Source: Eledone cirrhosa (lineage: Eukaryota). Taken from it: a stretch of 64,000 nucleotides of DNA. The stretch covers positions 272,304,001-272,368,000 of the forward strand of contig OZ024742.1 in NCBI GenBank assembly GCA_964016885.1, written 5' to 3'. Shown here piece after piece: positions 2,444 to 56,331 of this stretch. Position numbers and translations under genes: made by a program. The stretch's first letter is position 1. Each line of letters opens with the position of its first letter. The notes under the pieces were generated by a model. That model saw only the letters and a program-made list of their open reading frames with translations, searched no databases and was not told where the DNA came from.

Positions 2444-2869
2444 AAGAATGATAAATTAGAAAGATTGAAGGGACAGGTGTGGTGGAATTAGAGAAAAATG
2501 TTTTCAGATAAAAATAGCAGGTTCATTTATGTTGCCTTCTCTTGGAAAACTCTAACGGTAAGAAGGTTAAGAACACATAGTCCATAAGACGAGATTTATA
2601 TAAATTGATTTGGCCGCTGTCCTTAAGAAAAGAAGTATATTCTGAGTAAATGGATTAGACCTAAGTAACAGTTCTAGAATTATATTTAAATACACAGTCT
2701 ATTTTGTATATCAAGGAAATTGGGTTCTTGAAGTTAGCTTGTAAATTTTTTTTTTTATATAAATATTTCGTATCTCCAAAGAAATACGGTTTTAGGAAGC
2801 CGTAGCTATCCAAACACCGGGGGTGGGGGCTAACGCCCTCTGGTGATGTCCAGATGAAGCAAGGAGGAC

Positions 2870-2915
2870 AACTGTCTATGCATTTCAGGTTTAACTGGCC
2901 TTCGTCAGGACGGTT
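2870..2915 (-). ncRNA. Hammerhead ribozyme, family A
   Basis: AACCGTC-CTGACGA-AGG..CCT-GAAATGCATA-GACAGTT (one stem I mismatch). Confidence 0.75.
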
Positions 2916-3198
2916 CCTCCCACCGCTTGCGACTGCTGGACTAGAAGACAGGCGAGAATATATATTTTTCTCGTCTGTGTAAATGAGGTGATTAATGACA
3001 TTTGCATATGAAACTGCATAAGTTGGCTCAACGTATAATAAAAAAGAAATAGGATTTCGCTTCAAGCATAGCTTCATACAATATGTATAAATATTTCGTC
3101 TCTCCAAAGAAATACGGTTTTAGGAAGCCGTAGCTATGCAAACGCCGGGGGGGGGGGGATATCGCTCACTGGTGATATTCAGCAGAAGAAAAGGGGAC

Positions 3199-3245
3199 AA
3201 CCATGTATGCATTTCAGGCTTAACTGGCCTTCGTCAGGACGGTCC
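3199..3245 (-). ncRNA. Hammerhead ribozyme, family A (weakened stem I)
   Basis: GACCGTC-CTGACGA-AGGC..GCCT-GAAATGCATA-CATGGTT. Confidence 0.65.
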
Positions 3246-3362
3246 CTCCCACCGCTTGCGATTGCTGGACTAGAAGACAGGCGAGAATATATACTTTTCT
3301 CGTCTGTGTAAATGAGGTGATTAATGACATTTGCATATGAAGCTGCATAAGTTGGTGGGAGG

Positions 3363-3408
3363 GACCGTCCTGACGAAGGCCAGTTAAGCCTGAAATGCAT
3401 AGACGGTT
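3363..3408 (+). ncRNA. Hammerhead ribozyme, family A (intact)
   Basis: GACCGTC-CTGACGA-AGGC CAGTTAA GCCT-GAAATGCATA-GACGGTT; palindromic stem III ATGCAT; predicted AUA cleavage after 3401. Confidence 0.88.
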
Positions 3409-3865
3409 ATCCTCCTTGCTTGTGCTGGACATCACCAGAGGGCGTTAGTCCTAACCCCCTCCCCACGGTGTTTGCATAGCTACGGATTCCTAAATCCGTA
3501 TTTCTTTGGAGATACGAAATATTTATACATATTGTATAAAGCTATGCTTGAAGCGAAATCCTATTTCTATTTTTCTTCTATTTTTCTTCAATCTTGACTG
3601 TAGTCACGCAAGAGATACCTCCCCTGATCTTACCATTTGATTAAAAAAACCAAAACAAATTCAACTAATTCTTAAATTACCTGCCTCTCTTATGATATAA
3701 TTGTGAAACGATATAACAATGAAACCCAGCCGGCCCTCCTTATTATTTTTTTTCTTTCTTATGTCAAGCTGGATTCTATCTTGAGTTAAAAACCCCAAAT
3801 AGACCCTTATAATCAAAATAGCTCAAGGAAAAAACGTTTTCCGAACCTTATAATATAATATATAA

Positions 3866-30040: not shown

Positions 30041-30445
30041 ATGTGCAAATTGGGCTGCTCAGTCGTTAATATGCATAAGGAAAGAATATACCTTCAGACG
30101 TTCAACCATCTGGCAGGAAGGTATACGATGCTGACGATAGCTTATAAGCTTGAAACTAGTACATCGTTCCTGTGTCGATGTTAAACAAAAAGGTGACGTG
30201 GTTGCCTAAACACTGTACGGCGAAATTCGGGCTGTTTGTTTGTTTACAAACAAACAAACCGAGCCTTATAATAAATGTTCGGTAAACCGATACGTGCATA
30301 TATGTATGTGTGCATGTATGTATATATATACATACTACTGTACGTATGTATACATATATGTATGTAAGTATACATAAATACATACTTACATTCAAGTATG
30401 TGCCGTACTAAGAGTGAGAAATGAAATTTCCTTACATTCTATTCC
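30041..30445 (+). mobile_element. Retrozyme-like family B unit
   Basis: Homologous to the 420-bp unit at 44903-46190; ends in (TA)n. Confidence 0.8.
30125..30167 (+). ncRNA. Hammerhead ribozyme, family B (intact)
   Basis: ACGATG-CTGACGA-TAGCT TATA AGCTT-GAAACTAGTA-CATCGT; perfect 6-bp stem I, palindromic ACTAGT, GUA cleavage after 30161. Confidence 0.88.
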
Positions 30446-30450
30446 ATTTA

Positions 30451-30698
<248 letters not shown>

Positions 30699-31469
30699 TT
30701 TTGCGAGGTTTTTTATATGAAATCGTGTGTCGAAACAGATATTGTTATATTTGGGGAGGGTCATATTTGCGTAATATTGCCAGAATTAATAACAGAACAC
30801 ACTCACTGTTTGGTTGGTTTTCGCTTCTCGCTGTCTTTTATATATATATATCTGCGATCTAACTTACTCGGTCCTCAATGTTGCCATTGACTGACCGGCG
30901 GTCAAAAATAATACAGATACAATATAGACAAACACATATATATATAGTTTACATAATTTACATAAATCTTTCGTTGCACATCTGCAACATCGTCAGTGGT
31001 GTTATATTCATTGTTCCTCCTGTTGTGTTGTATGTCTACGCCATTTTTTTTTTTTTTTTTTGTTCAGTCTGTCTATATATTTATTTATTTATTTGCTTGT
31101 TTGTTTATCTTATTTTATTTTGTCTTCTTTGCGCATGCGTTTGCGTGTGTGTATAGTGTTATGTGTGATGTGTGACTAGTGTGTATAGTGTTGTGTCTGC
31201 TGGGTGACTAGTGTGTGTTTATGTGCTTGTGTATGTATTTATTTATCTTATTTTATTTATTTTATTTAATTTACTTATTTATTTATACTTCTCTTAGGTC
31301 AGTGTTGTTTGTTTGGGTGTTGTTGTTGTTCCACTCATTCTTTCTGTTTAGCTTTGGTCTTCTAATTTCTATTTCACTGGCCTCTCTGATTTGCCTATCT
31401 GCTGGGTCATTCCTATGTTTAGATATTATTCTAATTTCTATGTTGTCTATGTTACCGTCATGTTGTTGT

Positions 31470-32543
31470 CTAGCATGTTCGTATAGTACTGACCCGTTTT
31501 TTCGTCCTTTTAGTTCCCCCCCAGTGTTGGTCTATCCTTTCACCTATGCTACGAGCTGTCTCACCTATGTATGTTGTTGTCGTGTTTCTGCAAGTACCCT
31601 CTGTACATCTTATGCTATAGACTACGTTTCTAGTTTTACAGTTTATCCGGGGGTTCACCTTACATATGATACATTTCCTATTGGTACAGTGGGTTTTCTT
31701 AAAAGGGTAGGTTTTGCTGATCAGGGATTTTATGGTGGTTCCTGGCTTTTCTACCACCTTTATTTTTAAGTGGGTCTTTCTCGGGGCCTTTCTACACTGG
31801 TTAGCTAATTTCCCTCCAGGGGTGGCGTCCACAAACATGACACTCTGATATCTCTGGTTGTCGTACCATGATGTGGCCTTCCCTATCTTATGTCTAGCCC
31901 TATCTAAGCTATTCCATGATTTGCTCCTGTATAGTGAGCAAATTCCTTTCATGTCCAGTTCTATGAGGGTCTTATTCTTTTCCATGGCTCCTTCGTATAC
32001 TCTGACTCTGTCTCTTTGGTTGTAGCCAGAGAACTGCATGCGGTTGATGAAGTGTTGGATGTGTCCTTCCATTTCTGTTGGGTCGCACATGCTGGACACA
32101 TTCTTCATCACTCGTACCAAATCTGCGATCAGAATATTAAACTTAGCACTACTGGACATTGCTGAGTTTTTGAGTATCAGGTATTTGGAGGCCATGGGTT
32201 TAGCATAGTGTGAGTGGAGAATTTGGGCTCTCTCGTCTATAGTGTTAATCCAGAGTTCTGTGTCTAATACAGGTAGTCTATTGTTAGGGTGTTTGGAAGG
32301 GAAGTCTATAGTTACAGTTATACTCTGGTGTATGGAATTAGCTATCTGCTGGATGCTTTCCATCGTGCTACGTTCTAAATCAAACTTGTTAGTGCTCTCT
32401 AGTGGGGGTGTTCTTATAACTATGTTGATATCGTCTACATAACGAGAGTACATGATGAGGTCTATGGAGCTTTCATTAAGGAGGAGATCTTTAAGTCTCC
32501 TTTCCCACCATACCATGAAAAGGTTGGCAACATCACCAGCTAT
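31470..32543 (-). pseudogene. Inverted partial copy of PLE RT/GIY-YIG
   Basis: Same protein as 33293 onward with a few substitutions and a G7 vs G6 frameshift near 31520. Confidence 0.9.
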
Positions 32544-32544
32544 C

Positions 32545-34552
32545 CTCAACGCTCACATGATGATGTGGACTGACATCCTAAAGCCAAGCAGACGCACTGC
32601 CAACAACTTCCAGGCGTCTAACAATGGCATACCACGCTTGTATGGGCTCCGCAAAGACCACAAGACAGTCGACGACCCGACAACAGGACCACCAACAAGA
32701 CCTGTATGCGGAGCTAATATAGCTAGCAACTACAGGATCTCCTACTTCCTCTCAATGGTTATACGCCCCATAATCAAGATGTCCCCAGATGTATGTGAAA
32801 GTACAGAGGACCTCCTCAGCAGAATCAGTGAGTGCAACAAAAACAGGAGCCTATCCAACTGCATAATAGGCAGCATGGATGTGGTGTCACTGTACCCATC
32901 CATTAACATTGATTTTGCTGTGAAAATCATGTGTGGAGATGATCATTGAGAGTGAGGTGGAGTTCTGCGACGTCGACACAGACGAACTGGGCCTCCTACT
33001 TAGACTTACCTACGACACTGACTACCTAGACAGCCATGACCTTAGATGTTTCTGCCCTAGTAGACCTATAAGAGGTAGACCCCCCACCATAACCTCAATG
33101 GCTAAAAAGACTCCCATAGGAAGGTGGATTGGGTGGACCAAAGCTATACGGACCCCCCAAAACACTGATCAGGTAAGAAAAATGGTCGCACATGCATTAG
33201 GGGCTAGTATCAAAACTACCCTAAAGGGCCACATATTTAAGTTCAATGAGAAAATCTACACCCAAAATGAGGGAGCAGCCATCGGCGTCAGCATAGCTGG
33301 TGATGTTGCCAACCTTTTCATGGTATGGTGGGAAAGGAGACTTAAAGATCTCCTCCTTAATGAAAGCTCCATAGACCTCATCATGTACTCTCGTTATGTA
33401 GACGATATCAATATAGTTATAAGAACACCCCCACTAGAGAGCACTAACAAGTTTGATTTAGAACGTAGCACGATGGAAAGCATCCAGCAGATAGCTAATT
33501 CCATACACCAGAGTATAACTGTAACTATAGACTTCCCTTCCAAACACCCTAACAATAGACTACCTGTATTAGACACAGAACTCTGGATTAACACTATAGA
33601 CGAGAGAGCCCAAATTCTCCACTCACACTATGCTAAACCCATGGCCTCCAAATACCTGATACTCAAAAACTCAGCAATGTCCAGTAGTGCTAAGTTTAAT
33701 ATCCTGATCGCAGATTTGGTACGAGTGATGAAGAATGTGTCCAGCATGTGCGACCCAACAGAAATGGAAGGACACATCCAACACTTCATCAACCGCATGC
33801 AGTTCTCTGGCTACAACCAAAGAGATAGAGTCAGAGTATACGAAGGAGCCATGGAAAAGTATAAGACCCTCATAGAACTGGACATGAAAGGAATTTGCCC
33901 ACTATACAGGAGCAAATCATGGAATAGCTTAGATAGGGCTAGACATAAGATAGGGAAGGCCACATCACGGTACGACAACCAGAGATATCAGAGTGTCATG
34001 TTTGTGGACGCCACCCCTGGAGGGAAATTAGCTAACCAGTGTAGAAAGGCCCTGAGAAAGACCCACTTAAAAATAAAGGTGGTAGAAAAGCCAGGAACCA
34101 CCATAAAATCCCTGATCAGCAAAACCTACCCTTTTAAGAAAACCCACTGTACCAATAGGAAATGTATCATATGTAAGGTGAACCCCCGGATAAACTGTAA
34201 AACTAGAAACGTAGTCTATAGCATAAGATGTACAGAGGGTACTTGCAGAAACACGACAACAACATACATAGGTGAGACAGCTCGTAGCATAGGTGAAAGG
34301 ATAGACCAACACTGGGGGGAACTAAAAGGACGAAAAAACGGGTCAGTACTATACGAACATGCTAGACAACAACATGACGGTAACATGAACAACATAGAAA
34401 TTAGAATAATATCTAAACATAGGAATGACCCAGCAGATAGGCAAATCAGAGAGGCCAGTGAAATAGAAATTAGAAGACCAAAGCTAAACAGAAAGAATGA
34501 GTGGAACAACAACAACACCCAAACAAACAACACTGACCTAAGAGAAGTATAA
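32545..34552 (+). CDS. PLE polyprotein (RT plus C-terminal GIY-YIG), 5'-truncated, one frameshift near 32930
   Basis: PRLYGLRKDHK..TRPV..GSMDVVSLYPSI / GAAIG..ANLFM..YSRYVDDI..LPVLD..CxxxxCxxC..NVVY..C..YIGETARSIGERIDQH..REA..PKLN. Confidence 0.92.
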
Positions 34553-34838
34553 ATAAATAAGTAAATTAAATAAAATAAATAAAATAAGATAAATAAATAC
34601 ATACACAAGCACATAAACACACACTAGTCACCCAGCAGACACAACACTATACACACTAGTCACACATCACACATAACACTATATACACACGCAAACGCAT
34701 GCGCAAAGAAGACAAAATAAAATAAGATAAACAAACAAGCAAATAAATAAATAAATATATAGACAGACTGAACAAAAAAAAAAAAAAAAAAAATGGCGTA
34801 GACATACAACACAACAGGAGGAACAATGAATATAACAC

Positions 34839-34876
34839 CACTGACGATGTTGCAGATGTGCAACGAAAGATTTATG
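34839..34876 (+). ncRNA. Hammerhead-like core in PLE 3' UTR (mirror copy ~30960-30997 minus)
   Basis: CTGACGA-T GTTGCA GATG TGCAAC-GAAAGATTTA; strong stem II but only ~2 bp of stem I. Confidence 0.45.
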
Positions 34877-35121
34877 TAAATTATGTAAACTATATATATA
34901 TGTGTTTGTCTATATTGTATCTGTATTATTTTTGACCGCCGGTCAGTCAATGGCAACATTGAGGACCGAGTAAGTTAGATCGCAGATATATATATATATA
35001 TAAAAGACAGCGAGAAGCGAAAACCAACCAAACAGTGAGTGTGTCCTGTTATTAATTCTGGCAATATTACGCAAATATGACCCTCCCCAAATATAACAAT
35101 ATATATATATATATATATATA

Positions 35122-35958
35122 AAGTATGTACACGTACATACATATATGTATACGGACGTACAGTAGTATGTATATATATATACATACATGCACACATATA
35201 TATGTACGTATGGATTCACCGAACATTTGTTATAATGCTCGGTGTATTTGTAAACAAACATCCCGTATTAAGCCGTAGTGTCTAGCAACCATCGTTGCTC
35301 GTTTGTTCAACACTAACAAAGGAACGCTGTACTAGTTTCAAGCTTATTAGCTATCGTCAGCAACGTATACCTTCCTGACAGTTTGTTGAACGTATATACT
35401 TACCTTATGCATATTAACTGCTGAGTAGCCCAATGTGCATATCGAGTGGATTAATCGGCCGGATGCAGCGAAAACGATAAACGGAAAAAATGAAACGAAA
35501 TTTCATTTCCCACTCTTAGTACGGCTGTTACTTAAATATAAGTATGTATACGTACACGATTAACCCACTCGATATGCAAATTGGGCTACTCAGCCGTTAA
35601 TATGCATAAGGTAAGTATATACGTTCAACAATCTGGCAGGAAGGTATACGTTGCTGACGATAGCTAATAAGCTTGAAACTAGTTAAGCGTTCCTTTGTCA
35701 GTGTTGAACAAACGAGCAATGATGGTTGCTAGACACTACGGCTTAATACGGATGTTTGTTTACAAACACACCGAGCATTATAACAAATGTTCGGTCAATC
35801 CATACGTACATATATATATGTGTGCATGTATGTATATATATATACAGACTACTGTACGTCTGTATACATATATGTATGTACGTGTACAAACTTATATTTA
35901 AGTAACAGCCGTACTAAGAGTGTGAAATGAAATTTCGTTTAAATTTTTTCCGTTTATA
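35122..35958. mobile_element. Retrozyme-like family B fold-back pair
   Basis: Minus unit 35122-35556 (intact HHR 35324-35366) abutting plus unit 35560-35958 (HHR 35648-35690). Confidence 0.85.
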
Positions 35959-42269: not shown

Positions 42270-44690
42270 TTTCGGTCATTCCTTCTACTTCAACTTTCCA
42301 ATATGTTTCTTAAAGTTTTTTCTGTTACCATCAAGGCTGTTTTCTGCAACAATCCTGTCCCGATGGTATTTCATTGCTTCTCAAACCATGCATCCCACCC
42401 TCTACTCTCAGTGTGCGAACTCCAATCGGTAACACTTCTATGTGAACCAATCTAGCAATGTTGTCATGCCTGCCCTTGTAATCTTTCTGATCAAGCATCT
42501 TACATTCACTAATAATGTGGTTTATTGCCTCACCTTTCTCACGACATTGTTCTTTGATAGAAAGCAACTAATGCAGTCAGGTGTTTTCCTTTTTATTGGT
42601 CTTTCACAATTCCTTTGAACTGCTTGACCAATATTTTGTGCGTGCACAGGAACGAGAAAAACCAGAAATGGGACACCCTATCTCTACCATATTTCCAATT
42701 ATAAGCTTTATTGAGTGCCATAGTTGAGTCTGCTATTAAGATGTCTTCTTATACTTGGTATTGTAAATTTGTGTCGGAATTTCCAAGTGACTAATGCAAA
42801 CTACATTAGCATTAAATGACTTCTCATCATTCCAAATCTTTCTTCAAAAGTGTTCAACTTCTTCAATGGAAGGAAGGTCATCAATAACTATTTTCACTTT
42901 CCCTATTTCTCTACAGAATAACTTGGTATTGAAGGTGAACATCTTATTTAGCCTGTAGAAGTGGTTTCGCTTCTCTAATCTGCGCATTCTTTCGGACTTT
43001 ACTGGGACTTTTTGTTTCAAAGATTTGTTTGTTGATATTAGTACTTCTCTAGGTAAAATCCATATTTTCTCTTTAGCTTTCTATCCTTTCTGAATGTTTC
43101 ATCATTTTCAGTGATTAGCACATTCAGTAAAGATATTTTCGCTCCCATTAGGCGAATCACCTTTTCAATAATACTTCTCAAAATTGATTTATTTTTGAGG
43201 AGTAGAATTGAAAAGGGGATTAGAATTTTCCCAGGTAACTCACTTTCACAATTAATTTTTTGCATAGCTTTAATATCCTTTTCAACCGAAGTTCGTCAAC
43301 CCAAACTCAGTTGAATTAGATGCTGAAACAGTCATGTATGAAATTGAACAGGAGAAACTTATGAATAATTACGGATTAATAAGGGGTCTAGCATTCAGCA
43401 TGCAAGTATCAATGAGAGGGTAAAAAGGATTGTTACAGGACAGTACGCCCAGTACTGAGATCAGAACTAAATGCTCATAACAAGGAGTTAACCATAAATT
43501 ACTTGGCAGTTCCAGTTATCATTCATAGTTACGGTGTGCTAAATTGGAATATGAGTGAAATTAAAAGAAGCGACACTACAATCCGTAAGTTACTGGCTTG
43601 TAATAGGATGCACCACCCGAAAGCAGATGTGGATCGTCTTTACCTTCCGAGAACTCAAGGAGGCCGTGGACTGATCTAATTTGAACTTACCTACACGACC
43701 ACCACTATTGGACTGAACAAATACCCTGAAACAACACACGGCTGTTTGCTGAAACTCGTTGAAAACCATGAGAGACGTGAGGAGATTCATTTTATCTTGA
43801 AGGACCGCAAAAATACGCTTCTGATCTCAGGCTTGATAACCAAGTAGGACAGGCTAAGGAAACTCTTGGAATGATGCTGCTAAGCTTATGAAATTAATGG
43901 CAAAAGCAAAAGGGCAAGAACAATTATCATCAAAGTAGGAGCAGCAGCCTCTGCATGGCAAATATTTGGCCCGAAGCAAAGAAGCTGACATTGACCAAAA
44001 GCACACACATCAGTGGCTACGTAGCTCAGAGCTAAAAGCAACGTGAAAAGGCCAAGATCAAAGCTTTTTGACATGGAATTACCAGGCCAATATGATAAGA
44101 AATGGAATGAATAAAAAGTACAGATTCTGCAATGATGAGATTGAAACAAGAGGTCACTTTGTTTCTGGATGTACGATTTTAGCCCCAGTAGAATACAAAT
44201 ATAGACATGACAGAGTTAGCCAATATCTGCACTGCGTGATATGTTGACATTATAAAATCAAAGTTGCTGACAAGTGGTACAATCATCACCCTGAGGCTGT
44301 AATTGAAGGAGGAAAATTAACGTTTGTTTAGGACTATCCTGTCCATAACGACCGGACCATGAACAACTAATATACCAGATATCATTGTAAAAGACCAACA
44401 TAATGAGATCTGTATAATTATTAATATGAGCATCCCATATGATCACACTATTGCGGCAAAAGAATTGACAAGGTAAGAAAACATAAAGATCTGCTCATCG
44501 AAATTGAAAAAAAAGTGTGACACCCCAAGGCCGTTACAATAACGGTGACTGTAGCAGTTATGGGAATGATCAGGATAGGAACATAAGAGTATTTGAGAAT
44601 GGTTCCTGGTTTACCCTTTCTGCAAGATGTGCAAAACATTATTTTAACTGGTATTGAGTAGAGCACTATCTCTGTGATAATGATATACTT
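42270..44690. mobile_element. Old R4/Dong-like LINE fragments (minus 42270-43300, plus 43310-44690)
   Basis: CREKGEAINHIISECK..YKGRHDNIARLVH (minus); HPKADVDRLYLPRTQGGRGL, RHDRV, PDIIVKD (plus). Confidence 0.7.
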
Positions 44691-44819
44691 CAATGCATGT
44701 ATGTGTAGATGAGTGTGTATGTGTCTGGGTGTGTGCGCGCGCAAGCATGGATATCTTCTATTTATATGAATATGTATGTGTGTGTATATATGTATATGTA
44801 TATATGTGTGTGTATGTGC

Positions 44820-44902
<83 letters not shown>

Positions 44903-44906
<4 letters not shown>

Positions 44907-46330
44907 TATGTACACGTACATACATATATGCATACAGATGTACAGTAGTATGTATATATACATACATGCACACATATATATATTTGTACGTATGGATTCA
45001 CCGAACATTTATTATGATGCTCGGTGTGTTTGTAAACAAACATCCCGTATTAAGCCGTTGCTCGTTTGTTCAACACTGACAAATGAACGCTGTACTAGTT
45101 TCAAGCTTATTAACTATCGTCAACAACCTATACCTTCCTGCCAGATTGTTCAACGTATATACTTACCTTATGCATATTAACGGCTGAGTAGCCCAAGTTG
45201 CATATCGAGTGGGTTAATCGGCCGAGTGCACCGAAAACGATAAACGGAAAAAATGAAACGAAATTTCATTTCCGACTCTTAGTACGGCTGTTACTTAAAT
45301 ATAAGTATGTACACGTACATACATATATGCATACAGACGTACAGTAGTATGTATATATATATACATACATGCACACATGTATATATGTACGTATGGATTC
45401 ACCGAACATTTATTATAATCCTCGGTGTGTTTGTAAACAAACATCCCGTATTAAGCCGTGGTGTCTAGCAACCATCGTTGCTCGTTTGTACAACACTGAA
45501 AAAGGAACGCTGTACTAGTTTCAAGCTTATTAGCTATCTTCAGCAACGTATACCTTCCTGCCAGATTGTTGAACGTATATACTTACCTTATGCATATTAA
45601 CTGCTGAGTAGCCCAATTTGCATATAGTGTGGGTTAATCGGCCGGGTGCACCGATAACGATAAACGGAAGAAATGAAACGAAATTCCATTTCCCAGTCTT
45701 AGTACGGCTGTTACTTAAATATAAGTATGTACACGTACATACATATATGCATACAGACGTACAGTAGTATGTATATATATATACATACATGCACACATAT
45801 ATATATGTACGTATAGATTTACCGAACATTTATTATAATGCTCGGTGTGTTTGTAAATAAACATCCCGTATTAAGCCGTAGTGTCTAGCAACCATCGTTG
45901 CTCGTTTGTTCAACACTGACAAACGAACGCTGTACTAGTTTCAAGCTTATTAACTATCGTCAGCAATGTATAACTTCCTGCCAGATTGTTGAACGTATAT
46001 ACTTACCTTATGCATATTAACGGCTGAGTAGCCCAATTTGCATATCGAGTGGGTTAATCGGCCGGGTGCACCGAAAACGATAAACGGAAAAATTGAAACG
46101 AAATTTCATTTCCCACTCTTAGAACGGCTGTTACTTAAATATAAGTATGTACACGTACATACATATATGTATACAGACGTACAGTATATATATATATAAT
46201 ACGGGATGTTTGTTTACAAACACACCGAGCATTATAATAAATGTTCGGTGAATCCATGCGTACATATATATATATGTGTTAATGTATGTATATATATATA
46301 CATACTACTGTACGTATGTATGCATATATG
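44903..46330 (-). mobile_element. Retrozyme-like family B: three tandem 420-bp units plus short inverted arm
   Basis: HHRs at 45087-45129, 45507-45549, 45927-45969 spaced exactly 420; 46195-46330 inverted. Confidence 0.9.
45507..45549 (-). ncRNA. Hammerhead ribozyme, family B
   Basis: ACGTTG-CTGAAGA-TAGCT AATA AGCTT-GAAACTAGTA-CAGCGT. Confidence 0.85.
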
Positions 46331-46973
46331 GCGGCGGGGATATACGTGCGTGTGTGTAAGCTGTAAATTAAAATCAATGTGGTGTGTTAGCTGGCTTACT
46401 AATGTATACCGTGAGTTTACTTGCACTAGGTGTCAGGAAGACAGTCGGTATATGACGGAAACAATACTAAATGAAAAAGAAAACAATAAAACTTGTAATA
46501 ATAATAATGTTAGTAGAGATTATTAACAATTTTTTTCAAATTTATTGAATGTTAATAGAAGGATAGACATAAAATGATTTGCATCACTCCAGGAAGCCAT
46601 AGTGCTATCATATTTATATACTGTTTTATACTTGATGTTCGAGTAAACCAAATTATGGAAACCAGTGCCGGAAGAAATCGATGTGAACATAACGAAATAT
46701 GTCACAAACGTACAAAATCAAGTCCCCATTTTCAGACAACAAAAGATTCCACCGCATGATGCACGTTGTATGAATGCCTTTGGGGAGTCAGATTACAAAA
46801 AGAAATGCTGGAAAATTTAAATTTCGAACATTTTATATTATACACAAAGTGGCCTAGTTTTAAAGAAATACGAATACAAACGCGAAGAATCTACAAGTGT
46901 GAAGAGAATCTGACTCTTATGTCAAAACTGAGTTTTCTGTCATCATTGATATTATATTGAAGATATTATATTA

Positions 46974-51640: not shown

Positions 51641-52294
51641 TATATGAAAGTTAGAAGAATGAAAAATGAAATAAAGGAAACACAATGACGGTAGTAAATG
51701 CTTGGCGTAAAAATGTGCATATCATAACAACACCCACACACGCAAAATCAGACAAGTGACCAAAAAACACACATAAAAGACACGACTACACAAAGACACA
51801 CCAAATAGAATGCATGCACAAAAGCACAAGCGCAAACAGAGAAAAAAAAATAAATAAATAAAACTTTTTAGGAACACAATGGGAGGAAATTTTGAAGAAT
51901 GATAATCACTGAAAATGCTGCATATATATATATATATGACGAAAGAATTTAAGAAACTATATTTCTATTTGCACTTTTAACTGTTGGTCAACCAATGATA
52001 AATATTGATTGCCAGCTAAATTATTTATAGAAATATGAAAATATACTGAAGTGAAAACCAAACCAAAGACGTGGATGTATTTTACTATTTCTCTCTGGAA
52101 ATATTTTGAGATGCCCCCTCCTGAAATATAAAAAAATGTATGTTTCATCACAAGATTTTATATCAAAAATTTGTGAAACAAATACATCGCCCTTTAGGTA
52201 AATGAGTATATGGGAAAAAATTATCTTTTCTCTATAAACTTCACTAGATATGCACATCTCATCTACATTGTTTAATATACATAGACATATATAG

Positions 52295-52845
52295 TAAGTT
52301 TGTTTTAAAACAGCGAGCGAGATTGAAAATAGAAATAGAATAGTTCACCGTTTTTTTTTACTAAAGAAATTTCAGCCTGATAGTGGGTATAGAACCCTCT
52401 AATAAAAGGAAACAGCTGAGTATTGCCGGACATGCTAGTCAAACCCACATCTTTGGTTTTTCAGACCACTGTGCTACAATTACACTAACACATCACCCAT
52501 CTCTATATATTCAAATTAGAAGTTACATTCTTAGCAAGTATGATGAAAAGTAGGTTTGTTTTGAAAGGGTGGGCAAGATTGAAAATAGAAATAGAATATT
52601 TCACCTTTTGTTTTACTAAAGAAATTTTAGCCTGATAGTGGGTTATAGAACCCTCTATTAAAAGGAAAAAGATAAGTATTGTCGGACATTCTAGTCAAAC
52701 CCACATATTTGGTTTTTCAGACCACTGTACTACTATTACACTAACACACTACCCATCTCTATATATTCAAATTAGAAGTTACATTCTTAGCAAGTATGAT
52801 GACAAATAAGTTTGTTTTGAAAGTGTGAGCGAGTTGAATATAGAC
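52295..52845. repeat. ~255-bp tandem duplication containing tRNA-like sequence
   Basis: GATTGAAAATAGAAATAGAATA at 52321 and 52577. Confidence 0.85.
52429..52494 (-). pseudogene. tRNA-Phe(GAA)-like pseudogene (second copy 52685-52750)
   Basis: GATGTGT-TA-GTGTAATTGTAGCAC-AGTGGT CTGAAAA ACCA-AAGATGTGGGTTTGACT-AGCATGTC; acceptor, D and anticodon arms fold, 3' strand of the T stem is missing. Confidence 0.5.
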
Positions 52846-54830: not shown

Positions 54831-55239
54831 TCTCACTATTTGTGCATTTCCTATACCCATATCATCGGAACCACGCAACTAGGATAGATTAACAGAAGTC
54901 TTCCACATCAGTGCTACTCCTTTATAGATAATCTGTATATACCACCTTACGCACACACTCACGGCAGTGCCGCAATATCTTCATTCAACACTTCTTTAAA
55001 CATTGTCATGTATTAATCTCCCGGTTGCATCCCAAACTGTCCCTGTTATGTTTGCAACCATCCACATGTATAATATGCATTATAATATGTTGAGTTATGC
55101 AATATAATCAATATAGCTACTGTAATGACAAAAACTATGCCCACTGGCGCATATATGAGGATACAAATGCCTGCATACATCATTGGATGTAAATGCATAT
55201 GTATATGTTAGTTTTTGTGTATATACATATGTATATATA

Positions 55240-56292
55240 TAAGTATGTATACGTACAAACATATATGTATACAGCCGTAGAGTAGTATGCATATATATAC
55301 ATACATGCACACATATATATATGTACGTATCTTTTTTACCGAACATTTATTATAATGCTCGGTTTGTTTGTAAACAAACAAACATCCCGAATTAAGCCAT
55401 ACAGTGTTTAGCAACCATGGTCGCCCTTTTGTTCAACACTGACAAAGGAACGATGTACTAGTTTCAAACAGACCGAGCATTATAATAAATGTTCGGTAAA
55501 AACGATACGTACATATATATATATGTGTGCATGTATGTATAAATATACATACTAATGTACGTCTGTATACATATATGTATGAACATATACATTACTTATA
55601 TTTAAGTAACATCCGTACTAAGAGTGAGAAATGAAATTTCGTTTCATTTTTTCCATTTATCGTTTTCGGTGCGCCCAGCCGACTAACTCACTCGATATGC
55701 AAATTAGGCTGCTCAGCCGTTAATATGCATAAGGAAAGTATATACTTTCAGACGTTCATCAACTGGCCGGAATGTATACAATGCTGACGAGAGCTAATAA
55801 GCTTGAAACTAGTACATCGTTCCTTTGTCAGTGTTGAACAAAAGGGCAACGAATGTTGCTAAAAACTGTACGGCTTAATTCGGGCTGTTTCTTTGTTTAC
55901 AAACAAACAGAGCATTATAATAAATTGTTTCTATTTTTAGGCACAAGGCCAATAATTACACAGTGCATTACTGGTACTTTATTTTATCGACCCCGTAAGG
56001 ATGAAAGGCAAAGTCAACCTCGGCAGGGATTTGAACTCAGATCGTAAAGGGACGTAACTATGCTGGAAAGCATGGCGTCCGGCCCTCCACCGATACTGCC
56101 AATCCACCTTGGCATTATAATAAATGTTTGGTAAACACGAAAAGTACACATATATATATATATGTTTGCATGTGTGTATATATATACATACCACTGTACG
56201 TCTGTATACATATATGTCTGCACGTATACATACTTATATTTAAGTAACAGTCGTACTAAGAGTGAGAAATGAAATTTCGTTTCATTTTTTCC
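55240..56292. mobile_element. Retrozyme-like family B fold-back, interrupted by a SINE
   Basis: Minus arm 55240-55466 breaks inside the HHR; plus arm has HHR 55778-55820 (ACAATG-CTGACGA-GAGCT AATA AGCTT-GAAACTAGTA-CATCGT). Confidence 0.85.
55926..56111 (-). mobile_element. tRNA-derived SINE with 14-bp target-site duplication
   Basis: GCATTATAATAAAT at 55912-55925 and 56112-56125. Confidence 0.9.
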
Positions 56293-56331
56293 ATATATAT
56301 ATATATATGTATATATAGATATATATATATT

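Follow-up and report, generated by a model that had tools for sequence, protein, structure and literature searches.

Animal non-LTR retrozymes, the closest described relatives of the repeat reported here, are tandem, low-GC, ORF-less units of a few hundred bases that each carry a type I hammerhead (PMC7229834; bioRxiv 10.64898/2026.07.22.740005). The class is further characterized by self-cleaving RNA, by expression as linear and circular monomers and by the lack of LTRs, a primer-binding site and a polypurine tract. They co-occur with Penelope-type elements (PLEs), and mobilization by PLEs was proposed in both sources; in these accounts the mover of animal retrozymes and the circles as true intermediates are proposed rather than demonstrated. 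PLE insertions show 5′ truncation, often accompanied by a second copy that is inverted and likewise truncated, and a tail of 30-40 bp is borne by just one of the ends; (TA)n is a preferred target of the Naiads (Craig et al. 2021, PMC8557442). On AT-rich DNA, the purified protein of a lizard PLE nicks each of the two strands and extends them, and in vitro its reverse transcription starts at two positions within the RNA, one at each border of the tail (Frangieh et al. 2024, PMC11167929).

Here we analysed a 64,000-nt stretch (the window; contig C3:272304001-272368000) of the 3.0-Gb genome of Eledone cirrhosa, which contains several insertions of a 420-nt repeat, Family B. With a probability that we put at about 0.75, Family B is a non-coding animal non-LTR retrozyme residing in (TA)n, where a PLE likely inserted it by means of its reverse transcriptase and GIY-YIG endonuclease. 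We infer PLE mobilization because the Family B footprint matches published PLE insertions and start sites. Like the described retrozymes, Family B has a type I hammerhead in each unit, tandem units within ~150-450 bp with GC below 50% and no coding capacity, and it also co-occurs with PLEs. It represents a new sequence family within the animal non-LTR retrozymes. Earlier publications cover the class, the proposed role of PLEs and the tail mechanism, and the gain lies in supporting evidence rather than in a new system.

The focal locus is a tandem repeat at 44897-46330 (period 420, 2.7 copies, 93% matches; GC 0.35 over 44001-46000), and its RNA-sense strand is the minus strand. Monomer positions run from the base 3′ of the predicted GUA cut, position 1 (window 45932), to position 420 (window 45513). 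This predicted cut-to-cut monomer (45513..45932, minus) is strongly structured, with a folding z of -5.9 as a linear molecule, -7.7 as a circle and -3.1 once the TA/CA hairpin is left out. The main arm (44897..46202, minus) makes ~3.1 turns of the unit, is 5′-truncated at monomer 149 and has its 3′ end at monomer 217, where it runs into (TA)n; the adjoining (TA)41 microsatellite (44822..44904) is likely the target of the insertion. An inverted arm on the plus strand (46197..46330, monomer 60 to 191) meets the main arm head to head with a 6-nt overlap and ends at 191, before the 273 customary in partner arms. The 56 nt that separate the two fixed 3′ ends (the "tail", monomer 218-273) are present here as an internal copy at 45660..45715 on the minus strand.

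The initial annotation described an exact 420-nt array with three hammerheads whose stem I ends lie at 45927, 45507 and 45087. Our both-strand motif scan confirmed the period and the motifs; the spacing is exact, and the sequence is not, the units being 93-94% identical. Outside the TA hairpin the units differ pairwise by 4.5-6.9% and have 0-1 private variants in common, and the last unit carries a 19-nt deletion that reduces the spacing to 401. A length of 420 nt had been placed at the upper size range of animal retrozymes; it is not extreme beside the 51-972 bp of Li et al. 2026 (bioRxiv 10.64898/2026.07.22.740005). The claimed lack of an ORF stood, the frames overlapping the locus being of low complexity only, and ORF inspection found no reverse transcriptase or GIY-YIG frame in the 420-nt unit. 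Family B had very high depth in three contig runs from one sample, and no piece of these runs spans the focal array or its junction.

Three further loci reported for the window were also recovered. At 30041..30451 (plus) lies a single arm of the second subfamily, which runs from monomer 308 to 273, ends in (TA)n and has its core at 30131. The insertion at 35114..35957 is two-armed, with a minus arm at 35114-35556 (194 to 217) and a plus arm at 35557-35957 (293 to 273), both terminating in (TA)n. A second two-armed insertion, at 55234..56298, consists of a minus arm at 55234-55467 that ends at 217 and a plus arm at 55459-56298 that ends at 273, and is interrupted at 55926-56111 by a ~190-nt insert. 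The head-to-head inverted arm at 46197-46330 and the two-armed nature of the 35-kb and 55-kb loci were not mentioned in the initial annotation. The same ~190-nt insert, putatively SINE-like, occurs again at L014:1236-1426, both times near monomer 92-108; the commonest apparent 5′ end in our end map (8 of 236 arms) is position 96. The insert could mark a target hot spot or a composite subfamily.

The type I motif of Family B comprises a 6-bp stem I, CUGANGA, a 4-bp stem II with a basal U.U, and GAA, with A-CUAG-U-A as stem III and cut site. Scanning both strands of the window gave seven cores, at 45963, 45543, 45123 and 35360 on the minus strand and at 30131, 35654 and 55784 on the plus strand. 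Of the focal motifs, all on the minus strand, the first (45927..45969) has a CUGACGA core with C3 at 45963 and a predicted cut at 45933/45932, the second (45507..45549) a CUGAAGA core with C3 at 45543 and a predicted cut at 45513/45512, and the third (45087..45129) is a C3U variant (C3 position 45123) predicted to be impaired. Changes at C3 impair hammerheads; a C3G hammerhead mutant was assayed in PMC11167929. In the copy at 35654, GUA is replaced by GUU and the first stem I pair is broken.

Variation at N7 and a single C3U copy, at 45123, were found as reported earlier, and so were two subtypes that differ on both sides of stem I: 98 of 103 units of one have U.G where 53 of 59 of the other have A-U; this covariation concerns one pair and hence a single event. 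Searching the whole window with Rfam at gathering thresholds returned no match. At E<=10 over 44900-46400 there were 112 matches, every one below its own gathering score and none to a hammerhead; most were miRNA models on the TA/CA hairpin, and we dismissed them as compositional. The hammerhead call therefore rests on the consensus core and stem pairing. In the folding of five 71-nt hammerhead stretches z ranged between 0 and -2.1, which does not make the minimal motif a stability outlier. Of 167 units, 146 retain an intact core (115 of 132 without the pattern-picked loci), with stems I and II paired, and the two subfamilies, which diverge at 34 of 420 positions, show no difference within the 35-nt core region (p 0.046). 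Core conservation and the stem I pair change are modest evidence of selection in the active lineage.

Stem III is a single A-U pair closing a palindromic CUAG loop, with a computed energy of +5.4 kcal/mol within the monomer compared with -4.8 to -6.8 as an intermolecular duplex. The weak helix III with its palindromic tetraloop and the U.U at the base of helix II each have a counterpart in one axolotl retrozyme family. Where an axolotl motif has a palindromic tetraloop on a one-pair helix III, or carries a U.U in helix II, it cleaves better in dimeric form (PMC7229834). From these energetics and the axolotl precedent it may fairly be inferred that Family B would cleave as dimers via the ACUAGU palindrome. 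Because in vitro cleavage failed for 8 of 9 Xenopus retrozyme dimers (bioRxiv 10.64898/2026.07.22.740005), hammerhead activity in Family B is predicted rather than guaranteed.

Exact matches to a 31-nt core pattern number 11,115 genome-wide, with none for the reversed control, and the copies are spread over many contigs with a median arm of ~300-450 nt; units outside the focal locus measure ~420-450 nt. When the core pattern was given another stem II it had 2 matches, against 1 in the control. The portrayal of Family B as a retrozyme-like, ORF-less and abundant hammerhead retroelement is supported.

For the end map, fetched loci were aligned to the 420-nt monomer, and overlapping duplicate loci, matches to the TA/CA hairpin only, short or low-identity matches and arms cut by a locus edge were left out of the counts. 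The hammerhead-picked set comprised 83 non-overlapping loci and three window loci; the larger set of 236 arms combined hammerhead-picked loci with 70 end-picked loci, arms split at expanded TA loops being merged. The 3′ ends of these 236 non-redundant arms lie near 217 in 104 cases, near 273 in 92 and elsewhere in 40, so that 196 of 236, in a set that includes end-picked loci, fall in two windows covering 34 of the 420 positions. Among hammerhead-picked loci, 107 of 139 3′ ends lie at 205-220 or 262-275 (30 of 420 positions), and TA-rich DNA follows 74 of these 107 canonical ends compared with 5 of the 32 others. Exact junctions of an end with (TA)n occur 3,434 times genome-wide for the 217 end and 3,143 times for the 273 end, and controls gave none. 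The two sites are 56 nt apart. Arrays had been said to start and stop at different phases of the unit. This is true of the 5′ ends, which are scattered across the whole unit, and not of the 3′ ends, which are fixed at ~217 and ~273; permuted phases consequently fail as proof of reverse transcription around a circle, only the 5′ truncation being variable.

The two ends are also paired. Both outer ends are canonical in 55 of the 75 head-to-head pairs, and 53 of these 55 combine one 217 with one 273 end, the other two being 217/217 and none 273/273 (binomial p 4e-14 against 0.5). The 35-kb and 55-kb loci of the window obey this rule; at least one end is non-canonical in the other 20 pairs, which include the focal locus (217 and 191). 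Private (non-majority) variants common to opposite arms occur at 0.97 and 0.83 per 100 sites in the two subfamilies, compared with 0.13 and 0.21 between loci, and these variants indicate that a single source, rather than two separate insertion events, gave rise to both arms of an insertion. The sharing may alternatively result from gene conversion between inverted arms. All 37 junctions among those listed are unique, the flanks of 65 unpaired arms have no family-wide 5′ upstream sequence in common, and no LTR-like layout was seen in the end maps. Target-site duplications of animal non-LTR retrozymes, when present, exceed 4 bp; in Family B the ends merge with (TA)n, which masks any such duplication.

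In the mechanism that we propose, the 420-nt unit would be transcribed and a PLE protein, probably acting as a dimer, would nick a (TA)n target on both strands. Each of the resulting DNA ends would serve as primer for copying one shared RNA, beginning at either of two internal sites that lie 56 nt from each other, and the two truncated cDNAs would be joined head to head. The template was likely something other than the cut linear monomer; we lean towards a ligated 420-nt circle, freed by hammerheads that likely cleave as dimers, with the odds against an uncut multimer close to even. Some long arrays were likely extended later through DNA-level duplication.

Frames that combine reverse transcriptase and GIY-YIG are present in this genome, with long ones of 796 and 938 aa. 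Several PLE families with such frames (636-938 aa) occur as near-identical copies, which suggests recent PLE activity, and contain hammerhead-like motifs in their 3′ regions. The window itself contains a PLE at ~30695-35110, called from motifs read by eye, as Pfam gave no match for its frames (31470-32552 minus and 32443-34552 plus). It consists of two inverted arms, with a hammerhead-like motif near 34843 and a ~45-nt tail on the left arm only, and both its ends lie in (TA)n that also contains Family B ends. This PLE has the same two-ended form as the Family B insertions.

No autonomous PLE with Family B as its terminal repeat was found among 103 PLE loci (60 GIY-YIG loci and 43 further loci, the latter set also containing 2 Family B arrays), which are a small sample of the 10,595-35,919 PLE candidates. 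Four candidate parents (L115, L145, L163 and L187) were rejected, since their Family B match beyond the TA hairpin is absent from other members of their families, and are read as separate insertions. Between Family B ends and the PLE frames near them at L003, L031, L039, L070 and L076 lie TA runs or unrelated DNA, and these cases were attributed to shared TA hot spots, a reading made base by base except for L003. At L008 Family B directly adjoins a PLE fragment, at a non-canonical end. At L273 (G000:C1:63204000-63213400) a short fragment with a 217 end stands head to head with a 5′-truncated arm of the 796-aa PLE family, and the 9.4-kb region contains no further Family B match; this single case could be a chimeric insertion from two RNAs. 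Another head-to-head junction of a PLE and Family B, at L059/L060, occurs twice, in inverted orientation.

As to the template, the predicted cut has 5 of 236 5′ ends no more than 6 nt away, compared with 6.7 expected, and because 5′ ends do not pile up at position 1 the template was likely a circle or an uncut multimer and likely not a cut monomer. Among end-picked loci the cut site is crossed by 56 of 89 canonical arms, 8 of which cross it twice. In favour of a circle, first and last turns in the larger subfamily differ by 2.7% (30 arms) and the two arms on the same turn by 3.4% (15 pairs; Mann-Whitney p 0.18), and first and last turns have 0.87 private variants per 100 sites in common, against 0.13 between loci. 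The second, smaller subfamily speaks against a circle, with 7.5% between first and last turns (7 arms) compared with 5.4% between arms (10 pairs). So do opposite arms, which have fewer common variants on different turns (0.42 per 100 sites) than on the same turn (0.97). The first 30 loci were additionally chosen for closeness to the query. On the side of a circle, predicted circular folding of two units gave z of -7.7 and -4.5 (40 shuffles). The focal array, whose units differ by 4.5-6.9% with 0-1 private variants in common, bears no sign of a single circular template. Together we give a circular template about even odds.

A different kind of periodicity is seen at L170 (G000:C1:19312500-19320000), where the period of 842 nt spans two units and alternate internal units are identical at scored sites. 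Neighbouring units there differ by 4.8% and the first unit is unlike both. Copying around a dimeric circle was rejected because the first unit differs from the later ones, and by its sequence L170 is likely a recent DNA-level duplication.

Duplication of this kind is what satellite DNA, arising through unequal crossover and DNA-level duplication and bearing an incidental hammerhead-like motif, would display, and it does affect some arrays, L170 for one, while L018 repeats a truncated block. Crossover is not, however, expected to give fixed 3′ ends, TA targets and pairing in 53 of 55 cases, and the copies are short arms dispersed over many contigs; the end map has already largely refuted the satellite reading, which we regard as extremely improbable. 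The two-armed insertions recall instead twin priming, which yields head-to-head arms, and LINE-type reverse transcriptase fragments do occur in the window, so that Family B might be a SINE-like passenger of an ordinary LINE. Twin priming leaves the inverted arm with an outer end at some variable internal point, whereas in Family B both outer ends are fixed and complementary in type; moreover, each of them is internal to a circularly permuted unit, and a poly(A) end is lacking. Passage by a LINE is therefore very improbable. Against PLE mobilization itself stand the lack of a parent among the 103 PLE loci and a tail of 56 nt compared with the 30-40 nt published.

Within PLE mobilization, the most specific account has a PLE dimer prime synthesis from the two ends of a (TA)n break, at two fixed sites of a single 420-nt RNA circle made by the hammerhead, with rolling-circle copying through the ligated junction, and we give it somewhat less than an even chance. 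Its competitor parts ways with it at the template step only: the same PLE machinery would use an uncut linear array transcript or an orphan PLE terminal repeat, and the hammerhead would be an inherited passenger. In the lizard PLE, hammerhead mutants left insertion unchanged and unprocessed RNA was the main substrate (PMC11167929), which favours a template of this kind, as do the in vitro failure of most Xenopus retrozyme dimers (bioRxiv 10.64898/2026.07.22.740005), the weak stem III of Family B, the heterogeneity of the focal units and the existence of long potential source arrays (L022, L026). However, turns in the larger subfamily are no more divergent than arms (2.7% vs 3.4%) and are linked by private variants (0.87 vs 0.13 per 100). 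Read-through transcripts of ordinary copies would carry flanking sequence, so a shared 5′ flank would be expected at times; the 37 listed junctions are nevertheless all unique, and the 65 unpaired arms show no family-wide 5′ flank. We hold a linear template to be plausible at worse than even odds. The focal locus, with an inverted arm ending at 191 and heterogeneous units, is atypical and counts against the mechanism that we propose. If the circular account is true, rolling-circle target-primed reverse transcription would tie the retrozyme circle directly to PLE enzymes.

Compared with published retrozymes, Family B adds the fixed 217/273 ends and the rule of one of each; among the papers listed by our searches of a largely open-access literature, no title or opening abstract describes mapped insertion ends of animal retrozymes. 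The expression, cleavage and circles of Family B are predictions. In Xenopus, 24 of 57 families match known elements, nearly all of them PLEs (bioRxiv 10.64898/2026.07.22.740005), whereas Family B has no sister PLE repeat among the 103 loci. The main text of an octopus repeat annotation (PMC13282606) makes no mention of hammerheads, ribozymes or retrozymes.

With endonuclease-bearing PLEs (PMC8557442; PAc, PMC11167929) Family B shares 5′ truncation, here with fixed 3′ ends, an inverted truncated copy, a tail at one end and AT-rich or (TA)n targets. It further resembles PAc in having the hammerhead upstream of two reverse transcription start sites, which in Family B are putative, and a cDNA start away from the hammerhead cut (PMC11167929). 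It differs from these PLEs in having neither the reverse transcriptase nor the GIY-YIG frame of an autonomous element, a closed 420-nt permutation, a 56-nt rather than 30-40-nt tail, and ends 217 and 273 nt downstream of the predicted cut. Non-autonomous Chlamys PLEs such as MRC1 (PMC8557442) are likewise non-coding and form multicopy head-to-tail insertions through PLE machinery, as is likely for Family B; MRC1-type elements resemble their autonomous partner at the 3′ end, whereas Family B has none among the 103 loci. Most Chlamys lack canonical hammerheads (PMC8557442), and Family B has one. Family B thereby provides a quantitative footprint that points toward PLE enzymes, in the form of two fixed ends, the 53/55 rule and no stop at the cut, and it names two candidate priming sites, 217 and 273, that are open to direct test with purified PLE protein.

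Several minor features accompany these results. CUGAUGA cores with G at stem I position 387 (L081, L086 and L163) suggest more subfamilies. A perfect splice-donor-like AAG/GTAAGT lies upstream of the hammerhead in the larger subfamily (window 45580-45590, minus; monomer ~344-353), in place of which the other subfamily has AAG/GAAAGT; introns are possible within PLE terminal repeats (PMC8557442). The window also contains a second hammerhead repeat at 2758-3590, with a 329-nt unit, cores at 2908, 3237 and 3370 and a stem III with a UGCA loop, which has the head-to-head two-arm form of Family B and an extra tail on one arm only. At 52293-52844 there is a 256-nt tandem repeat of 2.2 copies.
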